Source: Thermodesulfobacteriota bacterium
GTDB taxonomy: Bacteria > Desulfobacterota > WTBG01 > JAGOGO01
Length of the DNA: 32,000 nucleotides
Reading direction: 5' to 3'
NCBI GenBank assembly: GCA_026625185.1
Contig: CP113000.1
Location: 795,622-827,621, forward strand
Below are positions 1 through 18,030 of this stretch, piece after piece (position 1 is the stretch's first letter; each line of letters starts with the position of its first letter). The notes beneath the pieces are model-generated. The model was given only the letters and a program-made list of their open reading frames with translations, was not told where the DNA came from and ran no database searches. The translations under genes and the position numbers were made by a program.

Positions 1-128
1 GTTTTTCAATTGTTCAAGAGTATATTCGCCGACTGATCACTTTCAGCGCGGCAACAACAACAAGTAAAACCATCGCCTGGCACATTGCGCTTTTTTCTCT
101 CTTTCTTATTTATCTGCCCTTCACGCAT

Positions 129-314
129 ATGACCCACTTTTTCATGAAATATTTCATGTGGGATAAAGTGCGGTTTGAAGACGAACCAAATTTTCGTGGC
201 AGCGATATGGAAGGCAAGATTGCAAAAGCATTAACCTACACACAAAACTGGTCAGCTCCGCATATTCAAACCGGCAAGAAATGGAGTGAGACAGCTTCAA
301 AGGGAGTAGAATAA
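129..314 (+). CDS. hypothetical small protein (61 aa), possibly translationally coupled to the downstream Fe-S gene
   Basis: The ORF ends in TAA directly abutting the next start (gaaTAAATG). It has no recognisable motif and no clear SD, and could equally be untranslated leader. Confidence 0.2.
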   Translation: MTHFFMKYFMWDKVRFEDEPNFRGSDMEGKIAKALTYTQNWSAPHIQTGKKWSETASKGVE

Positions 315-2312: not shown

Positions 2313-3671
2313 ATGAAACTGTCTTTAAAGGATCAGTCACGAATCTTAAACATTTCCGAGGTTAAAGTCCTGGAAAATATCGGAGAAGGAATTTTAATTA
2401 TAGACGATACTTTCCGCATTACCTATTTTAATTCCAAAGCGGTTTCCCTTACCGGTATACCCCGCAAAGAAGCGGTGGGAAAGCCATGTTATGAAATACT
2501 TGCCCTCTCAAACTGCACTGAGGGCTGCCCAGTACAAAAAATGGTCGAGCAAGGGGAGTCAATTGTTGATTACCGCTCCTTTATTAAAAGTCCTGATCGC
2601 GCTGCAGTTCCGGTGGAAGTTCGTTTTTCAATCTTGCGGGATCGCCAAAATCATTTTTCCGGCGGGATAATAACTGTCCGAGATCTTCCCTCCAAATATA
2701 ATAATGAGTTGGAAGGGGATCACCAGATTTATTCATTCCAAGGAATTTATGCAAACAATAAGAGATCGTTAGAAATTTTTGAAATTTTGCCTGACCTAAG
2801 CCGTTCTGATGCTTCCGTGCTTCTGCAAGGAGAAAGTGGCACTGGCAAGGAACTGTTTGCGGCTGCGATTCATAACTTGAGCTATCGAAAAAACAATCCT
2901 TTTATAATCGTAAACTGTGCTGCTTTGCCTGAAAATCTTTTAGAATCAGAACTTTTTGGATATATAAAAGGGGCTTTCACCGATGCAAAACAAAATAAAC
3001 CTGGGCGTTTTCAACTTGCCCATCAGGGGACGCTCTTTCTTGACGAGGTGGGAGATATTCCGCTTTCACTTCAGGCAAAACTGCTTCGGGTGGTGGAAGA
3101 AAAATCATTTACTCCTTTGGGTGGTACTAATGTGGTGAAAGTTGATGTGCGGATAATTTCGGCATCAAACCGCGATTTAGAGCAAATGGTAACCGTTGGA
3201 ACGTTCCGCCGCGATCTTTACTACCGGCTCAACGTTGTAAAGCTTGAAATCCCTCCTTTACGAGAGCGTCCGGAAGATATTCCTATTTTGATTAAACATT
3301 TCATTAACCAGTTTAACAAAAAAACTTTCCGAAACATTGAAGGGGTATCTACTAATTATCTGGAGGTTCTTAAAAACTATAAGTTTCCGGGAAATGTTCG
3401 CGAGTTAGAAAATATTATCGAGCATGCATTTGTGATGTGTCGAGGAAACACCATTCGCAGAAACCATCTTCCTTCTTATCTTTCTCGAACACCTCAAAAC
3501 CAGGAAAATCCCATGGGATCAGTGGAGCGGCTCTTCAACCAGATGGAAAAAGAGACGATTCTTAAAGTATTGGCAAAACACAAGGGAAATCGATCAACCG
3601 CTGCAGATGAGCTTGGTATGCACCGCACCACCTTATGGCGGAAACTCCGCCGAATAGAATTGAATTCATGA
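2313..3671 (+). CDS. sigma-54-dependent transcriptional activator (PAS - AAA+ - Fis-type HTH), no receiver domain
   Basis: 452 aa. N-terminal PAS with C59-x8-C68-x3-C72-P. Walker A GESGTGKE, GAFTDA (a variant of the GAFTGA sigma-54 contact loop) and Walker B LFLDEVGD. C-terminal HTH STAADELGMHRTTLWRKL. Confidence 0.9.
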   Translation: MKLSLKDQSRILNISEVKVLENIGEGILIIDDTFRITYFNSKAVSLTGIPRKEAVGKPCYEILALSNCTEGCPVQKMVEQGESIVDYRSFIKSPDRAAVPVEVRFSILRDRQNHFSGGIITVRDLPSKYNNELEGDHQIYSFQGIYANNKRSLEIFEILPDLSRSDASVLLQGESGTGKELFAAAIHNLSYRKNNPFIIVNCAALPENLLESELFGYIKGAFTDAKQNKPGRFQLAHQGTLFLDEVGDIPLSLQAKLLRVVEEKSFTPLGGTNVVKVDVRIISASNRDLEQMVTVGTFRRDLYYRLNVVKLEIPPLRERPEDIPILIKHFINQFNKKTFRNIEGVSTNYLEVLKNYKFPGNVRELENIIEHAFVMCRGNTIRRNHLPSYLSRTPQNQENPMGSVERLFNQMEKETILKVLAKHKGNRSTAADELGMHRTTLWRKLRRIELNS

Positions 3672-3685
3672 AGGTAAAGGAAAAT

Positions 3686-4816
3686 CTATGATATAGGGGC
3701 GGCATTGGCTTCAGTATCAGGAGAAGGCTGAGTAGGAGAGGTTGACTTGAGAGGAAACGTTACGCGAAAAACCGAACCTTCTCCGGGTGTTAGTGAACTA
3801 AAGGTTATCTGACCGCCAAGTTCGTTGACGATTTTTCTGGTCACCAAAAGCCCCAATCCTGTCCCGTAACGACCTTTTGTGGATAACATCCCGGTAAAAA
3901 AATAGTTTTCCCATTCCTCGGGAAGTCCCGGGCCATTGTCTTCAACCTCAAATACCACTAATGGTCCTTTGAAGAGGGAGCGAATAATTATCCGATGCTC
4001 ACGCCGGTTCACATCAAACTTACAGGCTTCTATCGCATTTTGCACTAAGTTGCTCAAAATCGTGTGCAGGTCTTCGGCATTAAACAGGATTGGCCCAAGT
4101 TTTGGTTCTAAATCCAGAACCAGTTTAATGTGTTCAAGGGCCGCTGTGCCCCGGAATAATTCAAAAACCTCACAGACGACTTGGTTTGGTTCAATAATGC
4201 TGAGGACATGTTCTCTTTTTTTAGCGCAATAAAGGATATCTTTGACCAGATTGGAAATTCGGGCGACATTCCGCTGAACGATTTCCCAACCTTTTAGAGT
4301 CTCCGCTTGGTCTCCTTGTTGCAAACCTGAGTTAACCACATAGATTCCCCCATCCAGGCCGGTTAAAATATTTTTTATAGAATGAGCCATGGTAGCAACC
4401 GTTTGTCCCATTAAGCTTAAGTCGGTCTGCAGCCGTTTAATATTGGTTATATTGGTGGACATTTCCATCACCGCCACAATCTGTCCTTGATCATTGTAAA
4501 GAGGACTCGTGTAAACAATGACAAAGGCTTCCTGGCCTTCACGGGTTATGACCCTCTCTTCACTGGAATGGACCTGCCCATCAGCAAATGTTTTAACCAC
4601 CGGACATTCCGGACAGGGACTGGATTTTCCTTTATAAACCTCATGACAGAGTTCACCTACCCGATTGCCGAAGTCTTGTTGAAAAAGCTGGTTGGTTTGG
4701 ACGATCCGTAACTCGTGATTTTGGACGGAGATATAGCAAGGAACGCGTTGAAAAAGCTGGGGGTAATCGTTTCTGGTAGGATCCTCTTTGCTGACGTCGA
4801 GTTGGTTTGGAGACAC
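3686..4816 (-). CDS. soluble PAS sensor histidine kinase
   Basis: 376 aa with a GTG start preceded by an AAGGGG SD and no obvious TM segment. PAS with C57-x10-C68-x2-C71-P, H-box MAHSIKN, and HATPase motifs NLVQNAIEA, DNGPGLP and GTGLGL. Confidence 0.85.
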   Translation of the reverse strand: MSPNQLDVSKEDPTRNDYPQLFQRVPCYISVQNHELRIVQTNQLFQQDFGNRVGELCHEVYKGKSSPCPECPVVKTFADGQVHSSEERVITREGQEAFVIVYTSPLYNDQGQIVAVMEMSTNITNIKRLQTDLSLMGQTVATMAHSIKNILTGLDGGIYVVNSGLQQGDQAETLKGWEIVQRNVARISNLVKDILYCAKKREHVLSIIEPNQVVCEVFELFRGTAALEHIKLVLDLEPKLGPILFNAEDLHTILSNLVQNAIEACKFDVNRREHRIIIRSLFKGPLVVFEVEDNGPGLPEEWENYFFTGMLSTKGRYGTGLGLLVTRKIVNELGGQITFSSLTPGEGSVFRVTFPLKSTSPTQPSPDTEANAAPIS

Positions 4817-4840
4817 GTGTTGCCCCTTAGAACAGAAAGG

Positions 4841-5215
4841 TTATTTTATATAAGTAGCAATCTTGTTCAAAAGCTCCTGGGGGGAAAAAGGTTTCTCAAG
4901 AAACTCTTGGGGACGAGGGACACTCTGATGGTCATGGGCGAAGAAGTCTTTATATTGCGTAACCGCGGAAAGAATGATTACCGGAATATCTTTATGCACT
5001 TCACTTTTTTTGAGTTTCCGATAAAAACCCACACCCGATTGATTAGGCATGATAATATCAAGGATAATTAAATCAGGAAAAAATTCAGTAAGTTTGCGAA
5101 ACCCATCTTCACCATCATCGGCAACCTTGGTGTGGTAACCGCTATTGGTAAGCAGAGAATTTAAGTAGGTTCGCACATCTTCTTCATCATCTATTATCAA
5201 TATTTTTTTTGTCAT
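4841..5215 (-). CDS. single-domain CheY-like response regulator receiver
   Basis: 124 aa with IIDDEEDV, acceptor Asp in LIILDIIMP, ILSA and EKPF. It is a paralogue of the ORF at 9228-9626 and shares an extended region before the conserved Lys. Confidence 0.9.
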   Translation of the reverse strand: MTKKILIIDDEEDVRTYLNSLLTNSGYHTKVADDGEDGFRKLTEFFPDLIILDIIMPNQSGVGFYRKLKKSEVHKDIPVIILSAVTQYKDFFAHDHQSVPRPQEFLEKPFSPQELLNKIATYIK

Positions 5216-5219
5216 TTTT

Positions 5220-5885
5220 TTAGCTCTTACTTCTTGATGAGGGAAAATGAGTTTGGGATTTATCCGCCTTTTTTATTCTCATTAAGACGGTTTTAACCTT
5301 TTCTTTCACTGGGGAGGGCTGATCGTCATTATTGACAATTGCATTCAGGGTGGTGAGCACTTCGGTATCGTGTTTACAACAAATTGAACCTAAAGCCTCA
5401 AGGGATGCAAGACGCACCTCAACCTCATTATCAGTAAGACACCTCATTAAACTTGAACGTGCCTCTCGGGCGCTGGTGCCAATTTGTCCCAGCACCCAGG
5501 CCACTCTTTCTCGAACATACCAGACTGAATCGGAGAGTGCTTCTATAAGGAAAGGTACTGCTACCGCAGCTTCCGGTCCTTGATCATTAATTGTTAAGAC
5601 CGCATATTCTCTCACATCTTCATGGGTATCTTGAAGCATAGGAACAATGTATCGTAAGATTGCGGGAATATCCAGTTTAAGCTCTTTTAAACTCTGTAAA
5701 GCTGCCAGCCTCACAAACCAAACAGTATCCTTCAGGGTTTTAATGAGCGCGTTATACGCAAGGGCATTGTTCTCTCCTAACTCGCCGAGAGTTCGGGCAG
5801 CGGCAAAGCGAATATGAGGATCTTTTGCCTCAAGGTCGCCTACAAGCTGAACAATCGCCTTTTGCATAGATGCACTTTCGGACAC
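5220..5885 (-). CDS. HEAT-repeat (PBS-lyase-type) protein
   Basis: It has five or more repeats of the D/x-VR-x-x-A-x-x-x-LG type (DPHIRFAAARTLGELG, WFVRLAALQSLKEL, DVREYAVLTI, WYVRERVAWVLGQIG, VEVRLASLEALGSI). The start is uncertain between GTG 5885 and ATG 5867. Confidence 0.8.
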   Translation of the reverse strand: MSESASMQKAIVQLVGDLEAKDPHIRFAAARTLGELGENNALAYNALIKTLKDTVWFVRLAALQSLKELKLDIPAILRYIVPMLQDTHEDVREYAVLTINDQGPEAAVAVPFLIEALSDSVWYVRERVAWVLGQIGTSAREARSSLMRCLTDNEVEVRLASLEALGSICCKHDTEVLTTLNAIVNNDDQPSPVKEKVKTVLMRIKKADKSQTHFPSSRSKS

Positions 5886-5900
5886 CCCGACATTCGTCGT

Positions 5901-6428
5901 TTAGGGTTTTATTAGGGTCCAGTCTCCTTGCCTGATTCCCAACTGATCAAGTATTTCAACTGCCCGTTTATTTAGGTGATAAGAGTTGGGTTTATCAGGA
6001 CCTACCATAATGACAGGGGTCCTAAAATTTGAAGCAAATTTTTCAATTGGTTCTCCCCCGAAGTCGGTGCCGTGTTCAGGATAACCAACCACTAAGACAT
6101 CATATTCTTTGCGGTGGAGGCAGCGGTGAAGCTCAGCGCCCTCATTGCCTTCGCAAAGCCTAAAACCGACTTTAACAAAGTCCCCTAACCAAAAGTCATA
6201 GTATTCACGCAACTCCAGCTCTTTTTTAGCTATCAGTTCATCAGTGACTCTTACCAATGTTTCTTTTTTATCATCAACATATACATAATCCCGACGAAAG
6301 CGAAAAGGTGAATCCAACCAGTGAAAGATATTGAGCTGAACATCGTGCATTCTGGCCAAGGTCAAAGCGTAATGGAATGCCCAGTCACCCTGGCGTGAAT
6401 AATGTGAACAAAGTCCGATGGCTTTCAT
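5901..6428 (-). CDS. universal-stress-protein-like alpha/beta protein (family assignment tentative)
   Basis: 175 aa with a strong SD (AGAGGGAAAA). The pattern MKAIGL...ALTLA...L.IFH ... DVLVVGYPEHG ... TPVIMVGP resembles the USP/adenine-nucleotide alpha-hydrolase fold. Confidence 0.5.
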   Translation of the reverse strand: MKAIGLCSHYSRQGDWAFHYALTLARMHDVQLNIFHWLDSPFRFRRDYVYVDDKKETLVRVTDELIAKKELELREYYDFWLGDFVKVGFRLCEGNEGAELHRCLHRKEYDVLVVGYPEHGTDFGGEPIEKFASNFRTPVIMVGPDKPNSYHLNKRAVEILDQLGIRQGDWTLIKP

Positions 6429-6453
6429 GTTTTTCCCTCTTTTGTTATTTAGG

Positions 6454-7887
6454 TTACTTTTCCTCTTTTTTTTCGGGCACCACCAATGCGTTTGCCACTA
6501 AGTCTAATACCTGGACAACTTGCATGTCAAGTTTATAGTGCCTGATCAAATCCCCCAGGCCGTCAACACAATTATGGCAAATAGTACAGACCTGCTTGGC
6601 CCCGGTATCTATTAACTGCTGGGCTTTAATCTTGGCCACTTCCATCCGGAGGGGTTTATATTCTACCATGGAAAGAGCTCCCCCACCGCCGGTACAGCAG
6701 AAGTTATCAGCTCGGTTAGGAAACATCTCCCGAAAGTCAGTGCAGACTCGTTTTAATATCCAGCGAGGCTCTTCGGTGAGGTCTCCAGATCGGGCGATAT
6801 TACAGGAATCATGAAAGGTGACCGGTAAAGAATTCTTCGAAGGGTCAACTTTTATTCGACCTTGACTGATATACCGGATTAAGGTAACTAAAACCGATTC
6901 TGAGGAAATATCTTGGGAATATTTAGCCCAGTTATAGCCTTCCCACCGGGTAGAACGATAACCGTGGCCACATTCCGAAATAACAATCCGTTTGGCTCGG
7001 AGTTTCTTAGCTGCCTCGTAAAGGTTCTTGGCCACAAAAGCACCTAACTTGTCATCTCCAGAAAAAAGGCCGAAGTTGGTCATATCCCACCCCCACCGGG
7101 GCATCGTCCAGCTTTCTCCAGCCGCATAAAATATTTTTGCGGCATGGCCGATGGAACGGGGGTCGTATTTGACCTCCCGGGGGTTAATCGTGTACATGAA
7201 ATCGCAGTCTTCCTTATCAACATGGATCTTGAAGGTGGGGTCACCTATTTCTTCACCAACCTCTTCACTCATCCACTCAAGTGTTTCCAAATATTCGTCT
7301 TCCGTCACCCCCATCTGGTTGCCGGTTTCCCATTGATCTTTGCTTACCACAAACACGCCTTCAGGTACAATGCCCAACTCGGTCAAAAGACCACGCGTAA
7401 GGCGGACTAAAATTGCCGTATCAACCCCCATCGGACAGTTTAGGGTGCAGCGACGGCAACCCGTACAGGTCCCGAAAACAATATTCTTGAGCCGATTCAT
7501 GTCCTCATCATTTTTGGGTGAACCGGCATGCACCCACCAGGGGATGATGCGGCCTGTCCAGTCAAAATGTTTTTTAAAAATGCGTCGGATTTGATCACCT
7601 TTATAAGCTGGAACCATAGTGGGATCGTGGGGGCGGGCAAGCACGTAATGGCAGACTTCTGAACACATACCGCAGTGAACACAGGCAGTCATTGACCCGA
7701 CCACTGAACGGTTGAGCCTGCTCTGTAAAAGTTCCAGAAACTTTTTCACATTATTGGTGTTGGGATCATAGACTTTAAGACGCCCTTCGGCCACGCAAGG
7801 AACCTTTTCCTCTACCGCCTTTTTCTGCTCCTTTGGATCCAAAGGTAAACTCAGGACATCTTCTATGTTTATGCTTTTCTCGATCAA
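6454..7887 (-). CDS. DsrK/HmeD-like iron-sulfur subunit (HdrD family, CCG domain)
   Basis: 477 aa with a TTG start and an AAAGGAGAA SD. Motifs CVHCGMCSEVC, CTGCRRCTLNCP, SECGHG, HDSCN, FCCTGGGGA and CTICHNC. It lies immediately downstream of a NarI/DsrM-like membrane protein. Confidence 0.85.
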   Translation of the reverse strand: MIEKSINIEDVLSLPLDPKEQKKAVEEKVPCVAEGRLKVYDPNTNNVKKFLELLQSRLNRSVVGSMTACVHCGMCSEVCHYVLARPHDPTMVPAYKGDQIRRIFKKHFDWTGRIIPWWVHAGSPKNDEDMNRLKNIVFGTCTGCRRCTLNCPMGVDTAILVRLTRGLLTELGIVPEGVFVVSKDQWETGNQMGVTEDEYLETLEWMSEEVGEEIGDPTFKIHVDKEDCDFMYTINPREVKYDPRSIGHAAKIFYAAGESWTMPRWGWDMTNFGLFSGDDKLGAFVAKNLYEAAKKLRAKRIVISECGHGYRSTRWEGYNWAKYSQDISSESVLVTLIRYISQGRIKVDPSKNSLPVTFHDSCNIARSGDLTEEPRWILKRVCTDFREMFPNRADNFCCTGGGGALSMVEYKPLRMEVAKIKAQQLIDTGAKQVCTICHNCVDGLGDLIRHYKLDMQVVQVLDLVANALVVPEKKEEK

Positions 7888-7901
7888 TGTTGTTCTCCTT
7901 T

Positions 7902-8603
7902 CTATTTGGTTAATGCCTTCTCATTATCTAACCCAGCCGGTTTTTCTCCTCCGCGTTTGCGCGGAAACACCCCGCGGTGCCCCATGAGTTTGCCTAAGAA
8001 ATAACGGGTAAAAGGATAGTAAAGGTAGTGGGAAATTTTCGAAAAGGGCACGTAAATCAGGAAAAATGTGGTCATGGCAAAGAATATTATCAGCGGCCAT
8101 TCGCCGGCGGTATGCTTGTTGGGCACAGCGAACACGCCGGAAGCAAAAAAAGAGGTCATCAAAATCAGAGAAAAGTAGTCATCGGGTGTGCTGATGAGCC
8201 TGAGGGCGGGTTTGGAAATACGCCGGATAAGCCTCAGGATTCCTACGAAAAATGCCGCCGCTAACGTAATCTGGAATATCCAAACAACCACCTTGACGTC
8301 AAAAAGCTGTGGCCAGTAGGGGATAATAAATGTCGCGCTGATTGCCGCCACTACTCCGAGGTGGAAAATAACAAACTGAAAATAAAAGCTCCAGTTTCTC
8401 CGCACGCTTTCCATGGCCCAGGGCATAGCAACATTCATCATGGAATAGGCTACCCCAACCTTGCTGCTGCCTACTCCATAACTAAAATCCTGAGGGGCTT
8501 TGAATCGAAACATCCAGAGCAGCCGAAGAACGTAAACCGCGCTCATAAATGCTAAGGCTACAAGCTGCACTTCATTCTCTAAAATTTTTAAGAATTCACT
8601 CAT
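7902..8603 (-). CDS. DsrM/HmeC/NarI-like membrane cytochrome b subunit
   Basis: Starting at ATG 8603 (SD GGGAGGAAG just upstream) gives 233 aa with multiple TM helices, conserved His residues (IFHLG) and the PFSKISHYLYYP motif typical of the nitrate-reductase-gamma-like family. The 268-aa ORF in the track (to 8708) would read through the sigma-54 promoter. Confidence 0.75.
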   Translation of the reverse strand: MSEFLKILENEVQLVALAFMSAVYVLRLLWMFRFKAPQDFSYGVGSSKVGVAYSMMNVAMPWAMESVRRNWSFYFQFVIFHLGVVAAISATFIIPYWPQLFDVKVVVWIFQITLAAAFFVGILRLIRRISKPALRLISTPDDYFSLILMTSFFASGVFAVPNKHTAGEWPLIIFFAMTTFFLIYVPFSKISHYLYYPFTRYFLGKLMGHRGVFPRKRGGEKPAGLDNEKALTK

Positions 8604-8686
8604 GCTTCCTCCCAACGATATATTTTTAATCAACAACTCTGTATAAAGGTCCCTCCGAGGGCCATTCAATCTTTCTTTCTTAAGTA

Positions 8687-8702
8687 AGCAAAAACAATGC
8701 CA
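8687..8702 (-). promoter_or_regulatory. sigma-54 (-24/-12) promoter
   Basis: The minus strand reads TGGCAT-TGTTT-TTGCT against the consensus TGGCAC-N5-TTGCW, with correct GG-N10-GC spacing. It sits about 85 nt upstream of the DsrM-like start, and a sigma-54 activator is encoded nearby. Confidence 0.65.
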
Positions 8703-8898
8703 CGACACTGAGCGCGTTTTCTTTTCGTTAAATCTTGATTAATTAATTAACTTTCAATATGTTGACTTTTAAAAACCAACCGCGCTTTAGGGATGGGTAT
8801 TACTTCTAAAAAATGTATCACTTGTTAATCATTTTTTTATAATTAGCTTAAATAATTATATTTTTAACTGAAAAAAGAGTATTTTTTATCTAAAAACC

Positions 8899-8943
8899 GT
8901 TGCAAGATAATTTTAGTGTTGCATTTATGAATCATCATGCAAC
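8899..8943. promoter_or_regulatory. candidate upstream activator sites: GTTGCA (8899), then inverted repeat GTTGCAT-N12-ATGCAAC (8918-8943)
   Basis: The hexamer TGCAAC/GTTGCA occurs 5 times within 200 bp of this intergenic region at 19-20 bp phasing. These sites lie about 200-240 bp upstream of the sigma-54 promoter. Confidence 0.45.
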
Positions 8944-9072
8944 GCGGGCCATATTCTGAAATTTTGATTTTAATAGTCTAATATTTAAATATTTTTTAAT
9001 TGTGAAACCCAAAACCAAAAGGTTTTAATTCGCTAAAAAATGCACCAATTATTATATTATATCTTCATTAAC

Positions 9073-9098
9073 TGCAACACTCAAATATAACGTGCAAC
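9073..9098. promoter_or_regulatory. two further direct TGCAAC copies 20 bp apart
   Basis: TGCAAC at 9073-9078 and 9093-9098, about 130-155 bp upstream of the divergent receiver gene. Confidence 0.35.
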
Positions 9099-9227
9099 AA
9101 CTATATTTCTATTAATTTGTAGGTCACTTTTCTTTTTCACCCATTGACATCAAGTGGGTTTTTTTGGTAGGGGTTTAGGTGAAAAGGGAAAAATAACCGA
9201 TTTTAAATTTTTTTAAGGAGGACAACA

Positions 9228-9626
9228 ATGGCACAGAAAAAGGTTTTAGTAATAGATGATGAGCCTGACGTATTGACCTACATTACCAGTATCCTGAAAA
9301 ATAACGGATATCTTTATGTTACTGCTAAAGATGGAATTGAAGGTATGGCAAAAGCCAGGGCAGAGAAACCCGATATAATCACCCTTGACCTTTTAATGCC
9401 GGAAAAGACCGGGATAAAATTATACCGGGAGCTCAGAAAGGATGAAGGGTTAAAGGGTATTCCGATCATAATGGTAACTGGTATCGCTTCGGAAGCTCAC
9501 CAGTTTGCCGATTTTAAAAAATTTATCTATGAGAGGAATATTCCGGCTCCAGAAGGTTATATTGAAAAACCTTTTAAAACGGAAGTGTTGATTGAAAAAA
9601 TTAAACAGGCATTGGGTGAACAGTAA
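9228..9626 (+). CDS. single-domain CheY-like response regulator receiver
   Basis: 132 aa with a strong SD (TAAGGAGGA). Motifs VIDDEPDV, IITLDLLMP, MVTG and EKPF. Confidence 0.9.
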   Translation: MAQKKVLVIDDEPDVLTYITSILKNNGYLYVTAKDGIEGMAKARAEKPDIITLDLLMPEKTGIKLYRELRKDEGLKGIPIIMVTGIASEAHQFADFKKFIYERNIPAPEGYIEKPFKTEVLIEKIKQALGEQ

Positions 9627-10100: not shown

Positions 10101-11207
10101 ATGGAAGATGATATTTACCGCACCCTCATGAAGCACCTGGGCGAGGTAGGGATTGGTTATCCTCAGATTGATGATTTTTTAGAAGTCTTAAAAAAAACCA
10201 TTACCCCTAAAGAGGCCGAAATAGCTCTCGGGCTCCCTACCCGGCTACCGCCACTTGATGTTGAGGACGTTGAGGCGATTGCTGGCCGACTTAAAAAGCC
10301 GATAAAAGAAGTTGAAGAAATTTTAGAAAAACTTGCTCAAAAGGGTTTCCTCTATAAAGGAAAAACTCCCTCCGATAAGATTGGGTTTGCTTTTATCCAG
10401 ATCGGCTTTGGAATTCCCCAAATATTTTTTTGGAAGGGAAAAATTACTGATCAGGTAAAGGAAGTGGTCCGGCCTTTGGAAAAATATCTCGCTAAAGGGG
10501 CAAAAGAAGTCAGAGGAGCAGATAAGACCCGATTTTATCGCTATGTTCCGGTAAACAAAGCAGTGGAGCATGCCCTGCAGGCTGTTCTTCCTTTTGATAT
10601 GATGACTGAGGTAGTAAAGAAGGCACGCAAGATCGCCGTCGTCCATTGCCCCTGCCGACAAACAGCACGGATTCTTAAAGACTCGAAATGCACTCACAGT
10701 TTAGAGATATGTATAAAATTTAACAAGATGGCGGAATTTGTTTTGGAAAAGGGGTTAGGCCGGGAAATTTCGCAATCTGATGCCCTCGATCTTATCCGCA
10801 AAGCTGAAGAGGAAGGACTGATACATTTCGTGGATAATTGCCAGGATGAAATCCAGCATAACTGTAACTGTTGCTCATGCTGTTGCTGGAACGTTATGCC
10901 GATCAAAAAACGGCTGGTTCCTCGCGACTATATCATGGCTACGTACTACTTAAGAACAACTGATGAAAATGAGTGCATTAGCTGTGGCCAATGCGCTCAA
11001 GATTGCCCGCTCGAAATCATTACGATGGGAAATGATCTGCCAGTGGTTGATGAGAGCGTGTGTATTGGTTGTGGAGTATGCCTTCTTCATTGTCCCACTG
11101 GAGCGGCCAAACTGAAAAGGAAAGATGATAAAGTTCCCTTTAAGAACTTTCAGGTTTTACACCAAACCGCGATTAAAAACTCGATTTCAAAAAAACAAAC
11201 CTCATAA
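10101..11207 (+). CDS. 4Fe-4S dicluster domain protein with an additional Cys-rich region
   Basis: 368 aa with a GGAGGA SD. The C-terminus has CISCGQCAQDCP and CIGCGVCLLHCP, and upstream are HCPCRQ and CNCCSCCCW (10863-10889). The N-terminal ~100 aa is helical and possibly winged-helix-like. Confidence 0.8.
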   Translation: MEDDIYRTLMKHLGEVGIGYPQIDDFLEVLKKTITPKEAEIALGLPTRLPPLDVEDVEAIAGRLKKPIKEVEEILEKLAQKGFLYKGKTPSDKIGFAFIQIGFGIPQIFFWKGKITDQVKEVVRPLEKYLAKGAKEVRGADKTRFYRYVPVNKAVEHALQAVLPFDMMTEVVKKARKIAVVHCPCRQTARILKDSKCTHSLEICIKFNKMAEFVLEKGLGREISQSDALDLIRKAEEEGLIHFVDNCQDEIQHNCNCCSCCCWNVMPIKKRLVPRDYIMATYYLRTTDENECISCGQCAQDCPLEIITMGNDLPVVDESVCIGCGVCLLHCPTGAAKLKRKDDKVPFKNFQVLHQTAIKNSISKKQTS

Positions 11208-11662: not shown

Positions 11663-13138
11663 TTAATCACCTGGGTTTCCTAACTTTGCCAATGCCTTCC
11701 GGTAAAGTTCCACATATTTTTTCGCAGATATTTTCCAAGAAAAATCAGCATCCATGGCGTTCTTGATGAGTTTTTCCCACTTCCCTTTGTCATTATAAAG
11801 AGTTAAAGCCTTTTTGATTGTCTTTAGCAGCTTGTTGGCATCATATTGTTTAAATTTAAATCCGGTTCCTTTCCCCGATGATGGATTAAATTCTTGAATA
11901 GTATCATCGAGCCCGCCAGTAGCCCTTACAATAGGGATCGTGCCGTATTTCAAACTATAAATCTGGTTAAGTCCGCAGGGCTCATAACGTGAGGGCATTA
12001 AGAACATATCGCACCCCGCTTCGATCTTATGGGCCAAGGTATTATCGTAAGCGATTTTTATTCCGGTCTTTTTAGGATATTTTCCCCCGATCAGGGTAAA
12101 AAGTTCATTATATTTTTCATCACCAGTTCCTAAAAGCACAAAACCGAGGTCCATTGTCATCAGTTTGTCCATAATCTGGGCCAGAAGATCAAAGCCTTTC
12201 TGGTCGGCCAGGCGGGAGATCACACCGAGTAAAGGAACAGAGAGAAGCTCTTCGGACAGACTGAAAGCCTTTAACAAATCCTGCTTGCATTTCGGTTTTC
12301 CGGTCAGGTCCTCAAGTGAATACGGTGAAGCGATAAACGCATCGGTGGCGGGATTCCATTCTTCATAGTCAGCGCCATTTAATACTCCGTAAAGGTCTTT
12401 TTTACGCGTGCGCAGAATCCCCTCCAGTCCGTAGCCGAATTCCTCGGTCTGAATTTCCCGGCTGTAAGTTTCGCTCACGGTATTAACAATATCCGCGAAA
12501 ACTATGCCGGCTTTCATAAAACTGATCTTCCCCCAGAACTCCACTCCGGCAATGGAAAAAAGTTCCGGAGGAAGGCCGGTTAAGTCAAAAGCCTCTCGGG
12601 AAAAGAGGCCCTGATAAGCCACATTATGAATAGAAAAAATCGAAGCGGTTTTCGCGAACCGGGGATCTTTTCTATACACGGTTTTCAAGTAACAGGGAAT
12701 TAAACCGCTTTGCCAGTCATTACAGTGGATGATATCAGGAAAAAAGTTAAGTTTCTCGCATAGCGCAAAAACCATTTTGGAAAAGAAAATGAACCGCGCG
12801 GCATTGTCAAAATAATCTCCTTTTGGGGTGCCGTATAAATTACTCCGATCGTAAAATTCCTCCTTTTCTACCAGATAGAACAAACAATCGTTTTCTTCGG
12901 TTAACAATGTTCTGATATCCCCTTTCACTGTTTGTTTGCCCAGCGTTACTTCCAGGTCTTCAGCGAGAAGTTTATAGTTGAATTTCTGTTCCCTCGCCAT
13001 CCGGTAAAAAGGCAGCACTAGCCGCGCGTCAACCCCGATCTCTTTGAGAGCTCTTGGCAGAGTGCCGCTCACATCCGCCAATCCGCCTGTTTTTGCAAAA
13101 GGGACTGCTTCTGACGAAACAAAAAGGACTTTTAGCAT
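11663..13138 (-). CDS. glgA: glycogen synthase (ADP-glucose type, GT5)
   Basis: 491 aa. N-terminal SEAVPFAKTGGLADV signature plus HCNDWQ, PSRYEPCGL and TGGLDDT motifs. Confidence 0.95.
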   Translation of the reverse strand: MLKVLFVSSEAVPFAKTGGLADVSGTLPRALKEIGVDARLVLPFYRMAREQKFNYKLLAEDLEVTLGKQTVKGDIRTLLTEENDCLFYLVEKEEFYDRSNLYGTPKGDYFDNAARFIFFSKMVFALCEKLNFFPDIIHCNDWQSGLIPCYLKTVYRKDPRFAKTASIFSIHNVAYQGLFSREAFDLTGLPPELFSIAGVEFWGKISFMKAGIVFADIVNTVSETYSREIQTEEFGYGLEGILRTRKKDLYGVLNGADYEEWNPATDAFIASPYSLEDLTGKPKCKQDLLKAFSLSEELLSVPLLGVISRLADQKGFDLLAQIMDKLMTMDLGFVLLGTGDEKYNELFTLIGGKYPKKTGIKIAYDNTLAHKIEAGCDMFLMPSRYEPCGLNQIYSLKYGTIPIVRATGGLDDTIQEFNPSSGKGTGFKFKQYDANKLLKTIKKALTLYNDKGKWEKLIKNAMDADFSWKISAKKYVELYRKALAKLGNPGD

Positions 13139-13512
13139 ACCCTACCTCTACTATAATATTCCAGTATAATTAAAATTTCCTTGACCTTGAAATTATTATA
13201 TTCCACCAGCACGTGCAAGGCAAGAGGAAAAGACCTCTGCAGGGGTTGTAAGTTTTAAACATTTTCTTGGTGTTTTCTTTAAAAGGTTTTTGATTGTTTT
13301 TCATTTAGAGGACCTGATTATAGCAAACTCGATTTTCTTTTTGCCAAAAAGCGCACCATAAGATTAATGGCATATTTGACCGCGCCTTTTCACCCCGCTG
13401 TGTCAGGGATTACTGATTAAAAATATATTGTAATTTTTTAGAAGTTAAACTATTATCTTGACCCATTGCGATAAGAGAAGTTTCATGGGGTTTGATCACG
13501 AGGAGGAAACCA

Positions 13513-14028
13513 ATGGAACAAAAAGAAGAGGAAGCAATTAAAAAAGTGATGCGGAAGCTGTGGATTGTTTGGGCTTCCATGCTCGTTTTTTTGGCAATGC
13601 ATATCGTCGTTTGTTATCATCTGGCTGAGAATTTAAAAACCCGGTCCTCACAAGCAGTTCCCCTCGTAATGGTTAAAAACATCTTTTATGGCCTAACTGT
13701 TGGTTCTTTATTGCTCGCAAATTTTTTGAAAAAATTAGTGTTGAGAGTTAAAACCGATCATTCACGTCAAGCGTCAATAAACCCCACCCCAGTCCGTCAG
13801 CAACCTCCCTTCGTGACAGGATATTTCACGACAGTTATTGTTTCTCTCGCTATTTCAGTAAGCATCGGGCTTTATGGTTATGTTTTTTTCTTTTTCAGTG
13901 CTGACTTCCCGACCCTTTATACCTTTATGGCCATTTCGGCTGCGGCGTTGTTTTACTTCCGTCCAAAAATAGAAGAACTAAAAAAGTTAGCTGCTGCCAT
14001 GGAAAGCGCTCATGGCGCAGGCGAATAA
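13513..14028 (+). CDS. hypothetical membrane protein (about 4 TM)
   Basis: ATG at 13513 preceded by AGGAGGAAA (the track's TTG at 13492 is less likely). It has hydrophobic segments, no recognisable motif, and lies 40 nt upstream of lemA. Confidence 0.6.
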   Translation: MEQKEEEAIKKVMRKLWIVWASMLVFLAMHIVVCYHLAENLKTRSSQAVPLVMVKNIFYGLTVGSLLLANFLKKLVLRVKTDHSRQASINPTPVRQQPPFVTGYFTTVIVSLAISVSIGLYGYVFFFFSADFPTLYTFMAISAAALFYFRPKIEELKKLAAAMESAHGAGE

Positions 14029-14067
14029 AATATAACGGTTAATTTTTTTTAAAAAAAGGAGGAGACA

Positions 14068-14637
14068 ATGGTCGGATTAATTGTTCTGGCAGGTATCGTC
14101 CTGATTGTCGTGTGGGGAATAGTAACCTTTAACCGGCTGGTATCCCTTCGGAACGAGGTGCAGAATTCCTGGAAACAAATCGATGTCCAGTTAAAGAGAA
14201 GACATGATCTTATTCCCAATTTGGTTTCTGTGGTCAAGGGCACCATGGAATTTGAGCAAGACACCCTCGAGAAAGTTATAAACGCACGGGCAAAGGCGGT
14301 TTCAGCCGGCAGCATGCAGGATAAAGTGAACGCCGAAAACATGCTTACCCAGGCTTTGGGAAAACTTTTTGCGGTCATGGAAAATTATCCGCAGCTTAAG
14401 TCCAATCAAAATATCATGCAGCTGCAGGAAGAGCTTACCTCAACCGAAAACCGCATAGGATTTGCCCGGCAGTTATATAACGATCTGGTCGCGCAGTACC
14501 GGATCAAGCAGGAAGTTTTTCCGAATAATATTTTTGTCGCGTTTTTCGGCGTTTTTAACAAAGAGGTCTATTTCGAGGCGGAGGAGGAGGCGCGCAAAGT
14601 TCCTCAGGCGGACACCAGCATCAGACCAAAAAGTTAA
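14068..14637 (+). CDS. lemA: LemA family protein
   Basis: 189 aa with an AGGAGGAG SD. N-terminal TM, then the NRLV.LRNEV.NSW.QIDVQLKRRHDLIPNLV and ENYPQLK signatures of LemA. Confidence 0.9.
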   Translation: MVGLIVLAGIVLIVVWGIVTFNRLVSLRNEVQNSWKQIDVQLKRRHDLIPNLVSVVKGTMEFEQDTLEKVINARAKAVSAGSMQDKVNAENMLTQALGKLFAVMENYPQLKSNQNIMQLQEELTSTENRIGFARQLYNDLVAQYRIKQEVFPNNIFVAFFGVFNKEVYFEAEEEARKVPQADTSIRPKS

Positions 14638-14648
14638 CCGGTTAATCC

Positions 14649-16271
14649 ATGCCATTTACTTTTATTGATATAGAACGCCAAAAGAGCTGGAAGATCGGCC
14701 TGTTTTTTGTCATCCTTCTGCTCATGTATTTTTTCAGCGCCCTGGTGATCGCGCGGATGGTTTTCGGCAACATCTTTGCAAAAGGCGTAATCCAGGGGGC
14801 CTTCAATGCTATTTATATTTTTATTTTTGCTGCGATGTTCGCATTTGTTCACTTTTTTCTCTTGTCCTATGATGTCACCGAAACGATAAAAGAAAAACTG
14901 GGCGCAACCGACCTTGACCCTGAAGATGACCTGCACAAACGTCTGAAGAACATTATGGCCGAAATCCATGTGGCTACCGGCAATAAGCGAAAAATGACGT
15001 GCGCTGTTATTCCTAGTCCGGCGATGAATGCTCTTGCGGCTAATGACTTCAAGGGAAACGCGCTCATCGCAATTACTGAAGGATTAGTGTCAAGACTTTC
15101 GCGGGATCAGACCGAGGCGGTTATTGCCCACGAAGCCTATCACATTCTCTCCGGTGATTGCCGTGAAAGTACCCTTGCGGTAAGCCTCTTCGGGTTTTCC
15201 ATGCCTTTCATGGAAAAAATTATGATTTACTGGGGGCGACTCTATCTCTTGTCTTTTATTCTTTTTAAACTTGGATATCTTTTAAACATGTTAATTTCAC
15301 GGGAGCGTGAATATCGGGCTGACGCCGGCGCGGTCCGGATGACCCGCAATCCTCTTGCACTTGCGGAGGTACTCTATCTGCTTTCCAAAAACTGGCGAGG
15401 CACAGGTTTGATCAGCAGTGACCTTGAAGGGTTATGTATCGTAAATCCCCGTCTCGATGAACTGGACGAATCAGAAGGTTTTTTTGCCGACCTTTTCTCC
15501 AGCCATCCACCCATCGAAAAACGAACTGAAATACTTCTGAATATGGCACACGCGGGTGTGGCTGAACTTGAGGCAAGAAGGAAACAAACCGCGACAAAAT
15601 CTTTGCCTGAAGAAACAGAAAAGAAATACTACGCCTTAGACGCTCTGTATGCCTGGCAAGGCCCTTACGCAGTGGCCGAGCTTGCCGCATTGCCATGGTT
15701 TTCTCCCCTGACCTGGGTAAGCGACGGGAGTGAAACGACGACCAAGGCATCTCAGATACCTGCGTTACGCGAAACACTTAAAACCCGTATTGCACCGCTG
15801 GAAGGGAAAATATCGGAGTATCCCTGCCCGGTGTGTCGGCAGCCGCTCATCCAGCAACACTACGAACAGATCCGGATATATCCATGTAACTTTTGTGGGG
15901 GCACGTTGGTTGACTGGGATAAGCTTCCGCGGATTATTATCCGGCGGGAAAACACCTGGTCCGAAAAAATCAAGGCCCAGGCGTGCGCGACCCTCAAGGA
16001 AAATCAGCGGGCCTATATCATGCGCCGCAGCAAAAACAATAAAACCAAAGCGGTCTCGTTGCAGTGTCCTAAATGCAAAAGGAGTATGCAGCGGACATTT
16101 TACAGCTATGTCTATCTTGTTGCAATAGACCGCTGTGCTTGCGGAGCGACGTGGTTTGATAAGGATGAACTGAGCATGCTCCAGTGCATGATCGAAAATA
16201 AGATGGCAGGAGAAGATTTTGCTGAAGAAGAAAGAAGAAATGATCGGAGAGCGCCCGCGCCCCGGCAATGA
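14649..16271 (+). CDS. membrane M48 (HtpX-like) zinc metallopeptidase with C-terminal GYF-like and two zinc-ribbon domains
   Basis: 540 aa. TM helices, HEAYH (15129-15143) and REREYRAD (third ligand Glu). Then YYALDALYAWQGPYAVAELAALPWFSPLTWV (GYF_2-like). Then CPVCRQPL...CNFCGGTLVDWDKL and CPKCKRSM...CACGATWFDKDEL (TFIIB-type zinc-ribbon pattern). Confidence 0.85.
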   Translation: MPFTFIDIERQKSWKIGLFFVILLLMYFFSALVIARMVFGNIFAKGVIQGAFNAIYIFIFAAMFAFVHFFLLSYDVTETIKEKLGATDLDPEDDLHKRLKNIMAEIHVATGNKRKMTCAVIPSPAMNALAANDFKGNALIAITEGLVSRLSRDQTEAVIAHEAYHILSGDCRESTLAVSLFGFSMPFMEKIMIYWGRLYLLSFILFKLGYLLNMLISREREYRADAGAVRMTRNPLALAEVLYLLSKNWRGTGLISSDLEGLCIVNPRLDELDESEGFFADLFSSHPPIEKRTEILLNMAHAGVAELEARRKQTATKSLPEETEKKYYALDALYAWQGPYAVAELAALPWFSPLTWVSDGSETTTKASQIPALRETLKTRIAPLEGKISEYPCPVCRQPLIQQHYEQIRIYPCNFCGGTLVDWDKLPRIIIRRENTWSEKIKAQACATLKENQRAYIMRRSKNNKTKAVSLQCPKCKRSMQRTFYSYVYLVAIDRCACGATWFDKDELSMLQCMIENKMAGEDFAEEERRNDRRAPAPRQ

Positions 16272-16321
16272 TAACTTTTTTTTTCGCCAACCAGCGGCGA
16301 CGATGAGAGATGGGTCCAATG

Positions 16322-16358
16322 ACCCCTGTGAAATTTTTTCTCACGGGGTTTATTTTTT
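16322..16358. terminator. hairpin between convergent genes (bidirectional terminator candidate)
   Basis: CCCC(T)GTGA-N9-TCACGGGG followed by TTTATTTTTT on the plus strand. It sits between the M48 stop (16271) and the cbiO stop (16350). Confidence 0.5.
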
Positions 16359-17150
16359 GTGAGTGTAATCTGAATGGTGGTGGGTATGATGGGGAATTTT
16401 ATTCGGATCCCACAACGAAATTTTCTGCATGCATAACGGCTTTTCAAGGCTGTTGGCGTGAAGAAAAGCTTCGTCCTGAAGGATTTCTTGCGTTGAGGCA
16501 TCAGCGGTGACACAGCCGCCGTGAAGGACAATAGTCCGCTCGCACAGCTCCAGGGCCATATCTAGGTCGTGGGTGGCGATGATTTTTGTATGCTCGAAGG
16601 TTTTGAGCAGTTCGATCAGCCGTCTCCGTGAGCGGGGATCAAGGCTTGAGGTCGGTTCATCCAAGACCAGAATATCCGGAGACATAGCCAGAACGGTAGC
16701 AATGGAAACAGAACGTTTTTCACCTTGTGAGAGCTTATACGGAGGGCGCTTTGCCAGGTGTCCCACGCCGGCTGTCTCAAGAGCCCGAAGAACCGTTTGT
16801 TTTGCCTCATCTTTGGTCATTCCGAAATTCAACGGTCCAAAAGCGACATCATCAAAAACCGTCGGCATGAATAACTGATCATCAGGATTCTGAAAGACCA
16901 TACCCAAGCTGCGGCGCACCTCATTCAGATTTTTGGAATTCAATGGATAGTCGCCAATCCGTAAAGTCCCTTGCGCGGCTGTCAAGCAGCCGTTTAAATG
17001 AAGCAAAAGAGTTGATTTGCCCGCGCCATTTTCTCCGACCAGGGCCACCGATTCCCCGTGTGAGACACGAAACGAAACCCCGTTTAGTCCCACCGTGCCG
17101 TCCGGATACGTATAATGCAGATCAATCGCTTCGACAATATGATGAGTCAT
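16350..17150 (-). CDS. cbiO: ECF transporter ATPase (CbiO/NikO type) with a His-rich C-terminal tail
   Basis: Walker A GENGAGKST, signature LSQGEKR, Walker B ILVLDEPTS. The start at ATG 17150 overlaps the cbiQ stop (ATGA). The tail reads PHHTHHHSDYTHKK. Confidence 0.9.
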   Translation of the reverse strand: MTHHIVEAIDLHYTYPDGTVGLNGVSFRVSHGESVALVGENGAGKSTLLLHLNGCLTAAQGTLRIGDYPLNSKNLNEVRRSLGMVFQNPDDQLFMPTVFDDVAFGPLNFGMTKDEAKQTVLRALETAGVGHLAKRPPYKLSQGEKRSVSIATVLAMSPDILVLDEPTSSLDPRSRRRLIELLKTFEHTKIIATHDLDMALELCERTIVLHGGCVTADASTQEILQDEAFLHANSLEKPLCMQKISLWDPNKIPHHTHHHSDYTHKK

Positions 17151-17959: not shown

Positions 17960-18030
17960 GGTGGTTATAAAAAAATTTGGTTAGCTGAATACGCGCCGGC
18001 CCTGGTCACCAAATATTCCTGTATTACTTT

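Follow-up and report, generated by a model that had tools for sequence, protein, structure and literature searches.

A conserved gene unit encoding a predicted two-subunit relative of the Hmc and Tmc redox complexes together with signalling proteins in a Thermodesulfobacteriota bacterium

Several membrane redox complexes of anaerobic bacteria, including DsrMK(JOP), Hmc and Tmc, possess a cytoplasmic HdrD-like iron-sulfur (Fe-S) subunit. DsrK, HmcF and TmcB all carry a single CCG motif together with a conserved catalytic cysteine in a [T/G]ECGH-type motif, and DsrC is the established substrate of DsrMK(JOP) (PMC10861901). The cytoplasmic partner of Hmc and Tmc is unsettled; DsrC and ferredoxin have both been suggested. 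The hmc operon (HmcABCDEF) is regulated by rrf1/rrf2, and TmcABCD has regulatory genes upstream. In S. carbinolicus, hmc is flanked by genes for a universal stress protein (USP) and a response regulator, and in D. multivorans tmc and hmc are flanked by three response regulators, a USP and four kinases, an arrangement 'resembling' that of D. vulgaris tmc; no function has been assigned to arrangements of this kind. Here we analyse a stretch of 32,000 nucleotides (nt) from a Thermodesulfobacteriota bacterium (WTBG01; JAGOGO01; assembly GCA_026625185.1, contig CP113000.1, positions 795,622-827,621), hereafter called the window. Its minus strand carries a putative six-gene operon for a membrane subunit and a CCG Fe-S subunit related to those of Hmc and Tmc, a USP-fold protein, a HEAT-repeat protein, a stand-alone receiver and a histidine kinase, next to a sigma-54 activator gene without a receiver domain.

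Described activators of this kind include OrpR of D. vulgaris. Its PAS domain contains C52, C61 and C65 together with a conserved D/E54, and holds a [4Fe-4S] cluster that senses redox potential; the PAS domain represses activity once the cluster is oxidised. In the table of D. vulgaris activators (Table 1 of PMC4641369), DVU2106 is listed with GAFTDA. Another one-component sigma-54 activator, DVU3142, controls the membrane redox complex genes ohcBAC.

In this study, we show that the six genes form one conserved unit, and we compare the operon with these known systems. On balance we consider it probable that the locus is a redox-gated operon for a small quinone-linked reductase of a DsrC-type protein, with a kinase as a second, cluster-type redox sensor. 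A previous reading of this DNA from its letters and open reading frames (ORFs), here called the sequence-only reading, did not recognise the composition as a described system. This holds only in part: Tmc and Hmc clusters flanked by response regulators, USPs and kinases are known from D. vulgaris, D. multivorans and S. carbinolicus, and the operon varies an arrangement that has been noted before without being explained. To our knowledge four aspects are new: the minimal two-subunit form with its wide distribution, the alternative linkage to dsrC and a cysteine desulfurase, the near-obligate link of a kinase with a four-cysteine PAS domain and a receiver to HdrD-like pairs, and OrpR-type control.

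The six-gene unit and its membrane/Fe-S pair

Genes were taken from the ORF list, domains were assigned with Pfam and NCBIfam, and all products were scanned for hydropathy and motifs. Every ORF was reproduced exactly at the coordinates of the sequence-only reading, and the gaps of 4-25 nt that it gave for the minus-strand genes measure 14, 25, 15, 4 and 24 nt (Table 1). The kinase gene and the convergent activator gene are 14 nt apart. Transmembrane (TM)-like segments, five in number, are confined to the membrane subunit of 233 amino acids (aa); none occurs in the other products, in agreement with the earlier description of the kinase as soluble. Kinase, receivers and AAA+ domain all retain their catalytic residues. 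Within the operon neither terminators nor promoters exceed shuffled expectation, and co-transcription of the six genes is plausible.

The 477-aa Fe-S protein has thousands of homologues, the top 120 of which come from several phyla and have identities of 69-94%. In species-representative genomes 236 carriers were found, and 80 loci (numbered L001 onwards) were analysed, for which ORF-based and tblastn-based maps agree. In 79 of 81 sequences (80 loci and the window) the membrane-subunit gene immediately precedes the Fe-S gene. Across phyla the pair is 63-94% identical, with 63-75% for the orthologues in other phyla. The full order membrane subunit, Fe-S subunit, USP-fold protein, HEAT protein, receiver, kinase is present in L001, L004, L006-L009 and L019 and in the metagenome contigs L086 and L088; contig ends cut L002 and L003 short, and in L005 the accessory block is inverted. 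Gene-neighbourhood analysis of the 477-aa protein had been proposed with the sequence-only reading, and it finds the synteny kept with tiny gaps in about 10 species-level Desulfobacterota metagenome-assembled genomes (MAGs). The HEAT protein (48-88% identity) occurs only in loci of the window's clade (group A) and is absent from the versions of the cluster in Desulfomonile tiedjei, L082 and L084. A receiver and a kinase gene upstream of the membrane-subunit gene in Aminicenantes were considered as further members of the pattern and rejected: they encode an OmpR/PhoB-type regulator and a membrane PhoR-like kinase without Cys-PAS, among pst/phoU genes, and are ordinary lineage synteny.

The sequence-only reading had labelled the pair as DsrMK-like. 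This label does not hold, since the Hmc and Tmc models outscore those for DsrM and DsrK. For the Fe-S subunit the NCBIfam scores are 320 bits with HmcF (cutoff 750), 309 with TmcB (cutoff 735) and 250 with DsrK (cutoff 400); for the membrane subunit they are 52 with HmcE (cutoff 275), 44 with TmcC (cutoff 240) and 18.5 with DsrM (cutoff 300). The D. tiedjei and L082 versions likewise score higher with Hmc/Tmc than with DsrK/DsrM models. By these scores the pair appears to be a distinct subfamily nearest HmcEF/TmcCB, a sister rather than an equivalog. The Fe-S subunit consists of Fer4_8 and CCG domains (Pfam), with two CX2CX2CX3C motifs, SECGH (C306) and the cysteine set C362-x34-C397C398-x35-C434-x2-C437. 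It thus has the single CCG motif and the ECGH-type cysteine, traits which are common to DsrK, HmcF and TmcB and do not discriminate between them. Among solved structures the only sequence match is a weak one to 9ojn (E = 4e-12).

NarI/DsrM-type cytochromes b bind two hemes through four histidine ligands. The membrane subunit has only two conserved TM histidines, H81 and H192, each kept in 99% of 79 sequences, and for this reason no more than one bis-His heme is predicted for it, which would probably make it a cytochrome b of mono-heme type. The longest ORF begins at GTG 8708 and would cover the promoter described below. All homologues share the start MSEFLKILE, and a GGGAGG Shine-Dalgarno sequence precedes ATG 8603, so that ATG 8603 is the true start, which places the promoter outside the gene.

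The operon thus shares with Hmc and Tmc its best-scoring models, the single CCG motif with the [T/G/S]ECGH cysteine, and its USP, receiver and kinase companions; a fuller Hmc-type cluster with the same companions is found in L110. Unlike Hmc and Tmc, it consists of the two-subunit core only, without HmcA/TmcA, HmcB, HmcC, HmcD or TmcD, and no gene for a periplasmic multihaem cytochrome c (HmcA/TmcA) is present within 3686-9227 or elsewhere in the window. A HEAT protein and the apparent sigma-54/OrpR-type control take the place of Rrf2, and orthologues of the pair reach phyla that do not reduce sulfate. With DsrMK the pair shares the two-subunit plan of a NarI-like membrane protein and an HdrD-like CCG protein with one noncubane-cluster site and the ECGH cysteine, and its orthologues in other phyla adjoin a dsrC gene for a two-cysteine protein. 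It differs from DsrMK in having two instead of four conserved TM histidines, in its lower DsrK/DsrM scores, in the lack of dsrAB, dsrC and dsrJOP nearby, and in that a truer DsrMK-like pair lies separately at 1-1925.

In this second pair, the CCG protein scores 355 bits with the NCBIfam DsrK model (cutoff 400) as against 206 with HmcF, and has GECGH and the CCG cysteines. The sequence-only reading had taken it for a partner-less DsrK/HdrD paralogue. This is an artefact of the window's edge: a DsrM-like partner ends at 1-311, where frame 3 contains LFLIYLPFTHMTHFF and matches the C-terminus of the full 295-aa protein of L086, a contig about 91-95% identical to the window, as well as a 313-aa protein of L005 whose sole NCBIfam match is DsrM. 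The DsrK-like paralogue is syntenic with the operon in L004, L005, L008, L068, L071 and L086. The second stand-alone receiver, divergent from the promoter and described as paralogous in the sequence-only reading, is 41% identical to the operon receiver and accompanies the DsrK-like paralogue in L004, L008, L068 and L071. In L086:11652-14080 (LQYC01004535.1), beyond what corresponds to the left edge of the window, two more stand-alone receivers are encoded upstream of the full-length DsrM-like gene, giving four output-less receivers within about 16 kilobases (kb); the same region contains a gene for a 153-aa protein with an N-terminal helix-turn-helix (HTH) and a Cys-rich C-terminus (CWELKDCPSEKKEKCPAWEF...CWFINGTIC...CLEC).

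Sigma-54 promoter, upstream repeats and activator

The sigma-54 promoter proposed at 8687-8702 on the minus strand, TGGCATTGTTTTTGCT, is an exact match to TGGCAY-N5-TTGCW, the only exact one in the window, and it recurs at the same place in related loci. Its position, 99 nt before the conserved ATG 8603, and its conservation make it credible. In L001-L004 and L008 the distance from a -24/-12 element to the start codon is 65-104 nt, and in L007 an insertion of about 155 nt extends it to 235 nt. In each of the promoter-bearing loci (L001, L002, L003, L004, L007 and L008) there is an adjacent activator gene or one truncated by the contig end. Loci of the window's clade with no adjacent activator gene (L005, L009 and L010) have no promoter element, and the element is likewise missing in other phyla.

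Five of the window's ten GTTGCA/TGCAAC hexamers fall inside 200 nt, 200-400 nt upstream of the promoter (corrected Poisson probability about 3e-6). Hexamers are also found upstream of the promoter in L001, L002, L003, L004, L007 and L008; L005, L006, L009 and L010 have one at most. The distal pair has a counterpart in L001. The hexamers recur in both activator-bearing sub-lineages, although the activators of these are only about 60% identical. From this distribution we infer that the GTTGCA hexamers are candidate activator-binding sites.

Separately, the insertion in L007 (locus positions about 815-970, some 80-235 nt ahead of the start of the membrane-subunit gene) contains a long inverted repeat, GTCATTGCGAGCGAAGCGAAGCAATC ... 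GATTGCTTCG...CTCGCAATGAC, and looks like a small mobile or repetitive extragenic palindromic (REP)-like element.

The activator had been described as a receiver-less PAS-AAA+-HTH protein, and Pfam agrees, with PAS_9, Sigma54_activat, AAA_lid_14 and HTH_8 and no Response_reg. Walker A and B are intact. The PAS domain has the motif C59-Y-E61-x6-C68-x3-C72, kept in all clade members. Its C-x-[D/E]-x6-C-x3-C spacing is identical to that of OrpR, and the two proteins also share the receiver-less architecture and a location beside a sigma-54 promoter. The window's activator and all clade members have GAFTDA instead of GAFTGA, as does OrpR/DVU2106. Both traits, the cysteine motif and GAFTDA, are present in 85 of the 120 nearest activator homologues, and 25 more are fragments without the loop region. 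OrpR controls the orp operons, whereas the apparent target here is the operon of an Hmc-like membrane redox complex. By its motifs the activator would be a member of an OrpR-type family with another regulon and another binding site, not an OrpR orthologue. The sequence-only reading had connected the Cys-containing PAS sensors with the expression, and possibly the substrate, of the module; a cluster-based sensor is likelier than a thiol/disulfide switch that the complex would service, as the cysteines match the [4Fe-4S] ligand set of OrpR, and the domain probably binds a redox-sensing [4Fe-4S] cluster.

The place of the activator gene varies. It is convergent and downstream in the window, L001 and L086, and upstream and co-directional in L002-L004, L006 and L008; that the linkage survives rearrangement argues for function. 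A similar situation is known from DVU3142 and ohcBAC, where a receiver-less activator also stands beside the sigma-54 promoter of a membrane redox complex of a sulfate reducer. Ohc differs in having no cytoplasmic CCG subunit, DVU3142 belongs to another activator family (GAFTGA), and the ohcBAC operon carries no kinase, receiver or USP gene.

Two further observations concern the OrpR-type family at large. The combination of a C-x-[DE]-x6-C-x3-C PAS motif with GAFTDA extends beyond Desulfobacterota to Spirochaetota, KSB1, Thermodesulfovibrionales and others (P0244-P0360, homologues of 2313-3056), a large family of putative Fe-S redox-sensing sigma-54 activators. In L083:11689-12610, genes of orp-operon type (DUF134 and a Nitro_FeMo-Co domain protein) adjoin a DsrMK-like pair that is convergent with receiver, kinase and USP-like genes, a sign that Orp genes may be more widely connected with these clusters.

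Kinase, electron partner and rival explanations

The kinase has complete H, N, G1 and G2 boxes (MAHSIKN, NLVQNA, DNGPG and GTGLG) and four PAS cysteines, C27, C57, C68 and C71 (P-C27-Y ... C57 ... C68-x2-C71), which none of 24 PAS copies from distant lineages has lost. This PAS domain is probably also cluster-binding. NreB-type Fe-S PAS kinases are cytoplasmic, and their four PAS cysteines could hold a redox- or oxygen-labile Fe-S cluster. The kinase resembles them in both its cytoplasmic location and its number of PAS cysteines, but the spacing, C-x29-C-x10-C-x2-C, is unlike that of NreB, its partner is a stand-alone receiver rather than a DNA-binding regulator, and it is almost always encoded with an HdrD-like membrane complex. 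A paralogous relation between the activator PAS and the kinase PAS as Cys-PAS sensors was considered and is not supported, the alignment being limited to a 30-residue Cys segment (E = 0.009).

The association was examined in the reverse direction by a metagenome scan seeded with the kinase PAS domain; a first alignment was too divergent for pattern design, and a narrower one was used. At least 472 instances were found and 80 were mapped, and the counts given here come from the 37 loci with at least 4.5 kb upstream. A CCG Fe-S gene precedes the kinase gene on the same strand in 35 of the 37 (directly upstream of the kinase and its receiver), and the other two have one nearby in the other orientation; a stand-alone receiver gene lies directly before the kinase gene in all 37. 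The CCG proteins in the 35 loci are HmcF-like in 10, DsrK-like with DsrM in 7 and of a more distant type in 18. These counts bear out the inclusion of kinase and receiver in the system by the sequence-only reading; no description of their linkage to HdrD-like pairs was found in the literature. A locus of the distant type, L110, encodes an HmcB-like ferredoxin with a twin-arginine (Tat) signal, an NrfD-like subunit, a membrane subunit, a CCG protein, a tandem USP, a receiver, a 4-Cys-PAS kinase and an Rrf2 regulator. A membrane subunit, a CCG Fe-S protein, a receiver and a 4-Cys-PAS kinase make up the recurrent unit, to which a USP is often added; only in the window's clade is it extended by the HEAT protein and the OrpR-type activator.

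Each of the two receivers (124 and 132 aa) has one domain only and lacks an output domain. The operon receiver has the residues DD9-10, D53, S83 and K108, and its best NCBIfam match is the DVU0259_DivK family (103 bits, cutoff 160). The USP-like protein scores below threshold with Pfam PF00582 (19.8 bits, cutoff 24), but its predicted structure supports the earlier assignment to the USP alpha/beta fold: the AlphaFold2 model has a predicted local distance difference test (pLDDT) score of 89.9, and Foldseek returns 47 Protein Data Bank (PDB) matches at E <= 1e-3, nearly all of them USPs, with template-modelling scores of 0.5-0.6, the best being TeaD, Rv2623 and the KdpD USP domain. By inspection, the stretch corresponding to the USP ATP motif G-x2-G-x9-G-[ST], G115-YPEH-G120-TDF-G124-G125-E, does not fit it. 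The family is narrow, with 197 members, and is linked to CCG Fe-S, receiver and kinase genes in D. tiedjei, L082, L083 and L084. In cultured D. tiedjei DSM 6799 the order, at about 4.894-4.900 Mb of CP003360.1, is membrane subunit, Fe-S subunit, kinase, USP, Rrf2, and the cluster ends with an IscR-like Rrf2 regulator. One member lies away from any CCG complex (L085:462-5313), between genes for a Cys/Met pyridoxal phosphate (PLP) enzyme and a radical S-adenosylmethionine (SAM)/SPASM enzyme, preceded by two Rrf2 regulators.

Regarding the electron partner, about 40 Aminicenantes/Acidobacteriota loci have a gene for a 106-aa DsrC-family protein (PF04358, E = 6e-35) adjoining the pair, plus a TIGR01977 cysteine desulfurase gene, and Smithella/Syntrophus-type loci have the order dsrC, membrane subunit, Fe-S subunit. 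Flanks of 3 kb or more on either side are available for 53 loci; in 32 of these the pair has a dsrC-like gene, and in 31 a desulfurase gene, no more than 3 kb away. The C-terminus of all 41 linked DsrC-like proteins reads C-x10-C-V, which is the DsrC signature with two cysteines. The sequence-only reading had named a known metabolic partner for the DsrK-like clade as a finding that would speak against it. Such a partner is found in part: the orthologues of 63-75% identity adjoin a two-cysteine DsrC, often with a desulfurase. Because dsrAB and dsrMKJOP are missing from described Smithella genomes, the pair may work outside classical sulfite reduction. For the window's pair, the likeliest substrate appears to be a DsrC-type protein whose gene lies elsewhere in the genome. 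As a separate observation, L014-L065 (for example L023:9300-12961 and L065:9300-12961) contain a compact four-gene set of the pair, DsrC and the TIGR01977 desulfurase in lineages not known as sulfate reducers; we found no prior description of this set in the literature.

According to the model that we favour, the locus would encode an HdrD-like membrane complex of the Hmc/Tmc branch in a minimal form of two subunits, with a five-helix, probably mono-heme, quinone-facing membrane protein and a CCG subunit with a single noncubane-cluster site and a catalytic SECGH cysteine. Electrons would pass between the menaquinone pool and a cytoplasmic sulfur- or disulfide-carrying DsrC-type protein encoded elsewhere in the genome, presumably in the direction of the latter. 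The six-gene operon would be transcribed from the sigma-54 promoter, with the receiver-less activator bound to the GTTGCA repeats 200-400 bp upstream, so that it would be on at low redox potential and off when the activator cluster is oxidised. The kinase and the output-less receiver would sense the redox state of the cytoplasm or one linked to the complex, and would adjust the complex or its expression by protein-protein contacts, in which the USP-fold protein and the HEAT protein may serve as targets or adaptors.

Several points weigh against this model. The promoter match taken alone is within chance, 1.84 matches being expected in the window at one mismatch allowed. In L006, where an activator gene is adjacent, the scanned 600 nt ahead of the membrane-subunit gene contain neither a promoter element nor hexamers, and an ORF of about 190 aa intervenes there. 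No exact site for integration host factor (IHF), WATCAANNNNTTR, is present between the repeats and the promoter; the sole match in the window is at 2048-2060 and within chance. OrpR binds the palindrome GGGCGYRTTTTGCGCCC, and the window's upstream region has GTTGCA/TGCAAC repeats instead; membership of the OrpR-type family was set by two motif-level characters and architecture, and no named OrpR was among the activator homologues recovered. All NCBIfam scores of the pair are far under the equivalog cutoffs, so that Hmc/Tmc function is not confidently transferable. As stated by the sequence-only reading, no sulfur-metabolism gene is in view: dsrC, cysteine desulfurase and other sulfur genes are absent from the 32-kb window and, to a distance of 10 kb, from all loci of the window's clade, and there is no dsrAB or dsrJOP near the operon within the window. 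The DsrC substrate is thus extrapolated, because only orthologues of about 70% identity carry an adjacent dsrC. The dsrC linkage (32 of 53) and the kinase linkage (12 of 53) are mutually exclusive, both occurring together in none of the 53 loci, and the kinase could replace DsrC as the partner rather than DsrC being encoded elsewhere. Apart from D. tiedjei, all related loci are MAGs or metagenome contigs.

This exclusivity is what would be expected of alternative partners of one site, and it is among the observations that suggest a different role, which we hold to be doubtful, namely that the complex is itself a sensor. The pair would serve no bulk metabolism, but would equilibrate the kinase PAS cysteines, or a cluster that they hold, with the menaquinone pool via the HdrD-type site; the kinase would then, with equally low probability, report the redox state of the quinone pool to the stand-alone receivers. 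The position of kinase and receiver directly downstream of the CCG gene in three CCG subfamilies and the invariance of the four PAS cysteines are in keeping with such a role, as is a receiver without DNA-binding output, which does not make a simple regulator-by-operon arrangement. However, the exclusivity is confounded with phylogeny (Aminicenantes/Acidobacteriota versus Desulfobacterota and others), and the kinase also accompanies the full Hmc-type cluster of L110, while Hmc and Tmc have measured metabolic phenotypes. The strong conservation of the pair, lineages without an adjacent kinase gene included, favours an enzymatic role, and the related PAS cysteine pattern of OrpR holds a [4Fe-4S] cluster that senses potential without a partner enzyme. 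A respiratory-type HdrD-like complex acting as a two-component receptor, by cluster or thiol redox chemistry at its noncubane-cluster site and with phosphorylation of the output-less receivers by the kinase, would amount to a widespread unrecognised class of quinone-pool sensors, with at least 472 instances of HmcF-like, DsrK-like and full Hmc-type association, and we consider this unlikely.

Two other explanations rank lower. The desulfurase gene beside the DsrC-like gene raises the prospect, in our view quite improbable, of sulfur trafficking, in which the pair would not be respiratory but would reduce or oxidise a persulfide or polysulfide on a TusE/DsrC-type carrier loaded by the desulfurase. 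Sulfide supply, cofactor or tRNA thiolation, or sulfane-sulfur detoxification would be served, and the HEAT protein and the USP-fold protein, a member of the adenine-nucleotide alpha-hydrolase superfamily, would take part, for which we see similarly slim chances. The Smithella/Syntrophus-type MAGs with dsrC and the pair, set against the described Smithella genomes, point in this direction, and so do the surroundings of the distant USP-like member in L085 and the IscR-like regulator at the end of the D. tiedjei cluster. Yet the linked DsrC-like proteins all have two cysteines and not the single one of TusE, neither a desulfurase nor a DsrC gene lies near the operon in the window's clade, and the USP-fold protein matches regulatory USPs best, without a PP-loop or an evident nucleotide motif; cysteinyl-tRNA synthetase, folK and pst genes close by mark part of the Aminicenantes neighbourhood as plain lineage synteny. 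Finally, the operon might be an ordinary extra dsrMK-like copy to which signalling genes are adjacent by accident. A second, more DsrK-like pair lies directly alongside, the whole window is rich in signalling genes, and sulfate reducers such as A. fulgidus are known to have several DsrMK paralogues (PMC10861901). This explanation is hardly credible and already contradicted by the synteny data: the gene order is kept with tiny gaps in about 10 species-level genomes, the activator remains linked despite its changed position, promoter and repeats co-occur with it, the reverse search from the kinase leads back to CCG Fe-S genes, and the DsrM/DsrK models score below the Hmc/Tmc models.

A compact, conserved two-subunit relative offers a simple system for the DsrC hypothesis outside classical sulfite reduction. 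The linkage with kinase and receiver would, if true, mean either a dedicated regulator of these complexes or a new kind of quinone-pool or cytoplasmic redox sensing in anaerobes. The OrpR-type Fe-S PAS activator family would extend to energy-metabolism genes, with a candidate binding motif. As the core module is present in cultured Desulfomonile tiedjei, experiments are feasible.

Features of the window and neighbouring genes

The features of the locus are listed in Table 1. A search for structured RNAs gave no match at or above an Rfam gathering score in the window.

Table 1. Coordinates of the operon and adjoining features in the window, with the evidence for each assignment.
Feature	Position	Strand	Evidence
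DsrM-like (NarI-type) membrane subunit, 3' end, cut by window edge	1..311	+	frame 3 open from base 3 to stop at 309-311
DsrK-like CCG iron-sulfur protein, 536 aa	315..1925	+	NCBIfam DsrK, GECGH, CCG cysteines
Putative OrpR-type sigma-54 enhancer-binding protein, PAS + AAA+ + HTH_8	2313..3671	+	Pfam, Cys motif, GAFTDA
Soluble histidine kinase, one 4-Cys PAS domain	3686..4816	-	PAS_4 + HisKA + HATPase_c
Stand-alone CheY-like receiver, 124 aa	4841..5215	-	Response_reg E = 8e-23
HEAT-repeat protein, 221 aa	5220..5885	-	HEAT_2 E = 1.9e-34
Divergent USP-fold protein, 175 aa	5901..6428	-	sub-threshold Pfam Usp; structure prediction + Foldseek
Predicted cytoplasmic CCG iron-sulfur catalytic subunit, HmcF/TmcB-like, 477 aa	6454..7887	-	NCBIfam scores, motifs
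HmcE/TmcC-like membrane subunit, 233 aa, five TM-like segments	7902..8603 (longest ORF to 8708)	-	NCBIfam, hydropathy
Sigma-54 (-24/-12) promoter TGGCATTGTTTTTGCT	8687..8702	-	exact consensus match
Proximal candidate activator-binding sites: three GTTGCA/TGCAAC hexamers including GTTGCAT-N12-ATGCAAC	8899..8943		
Distal hexamer pair: TGCAACA twice, 20 nt apart	9073..9098		
Second stand-alone receiver, 132 aa, divergent from promoter	9228..9626	+	Response_reg E = 1.7e-20

Beyond the second receiver, 10101-11207 encodes a 368-aa protein with a C-terminal double [4Fe-4S] ferredoxin domain and the Cys-rich stretch HNCNCCSCCCW. It was considered as a member of the system and excluded, as the gene is kept only in the near-identical contig L086. 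Further signalling genes occupy 20998-27762 and 29045-31942; they encode a PAS-PAS-LuxR regulator, a PAS histidine kinase and an adenylate/guanylate cyclase-domain protein, and the same stretches contain a 723-aa ORF without a Pfam match, adjoining a Ser/Thr protein kinase. Glycogen synthase (11663-13138) and the housekeeping genes at 13492-20196, for LemA, an M48 peptidase with a zinc ribbon, a CbiMQO-type cobalt/energy-coupling factor (ECF) transporter and an OprB-like porin, are apparently unrelated to the operon.

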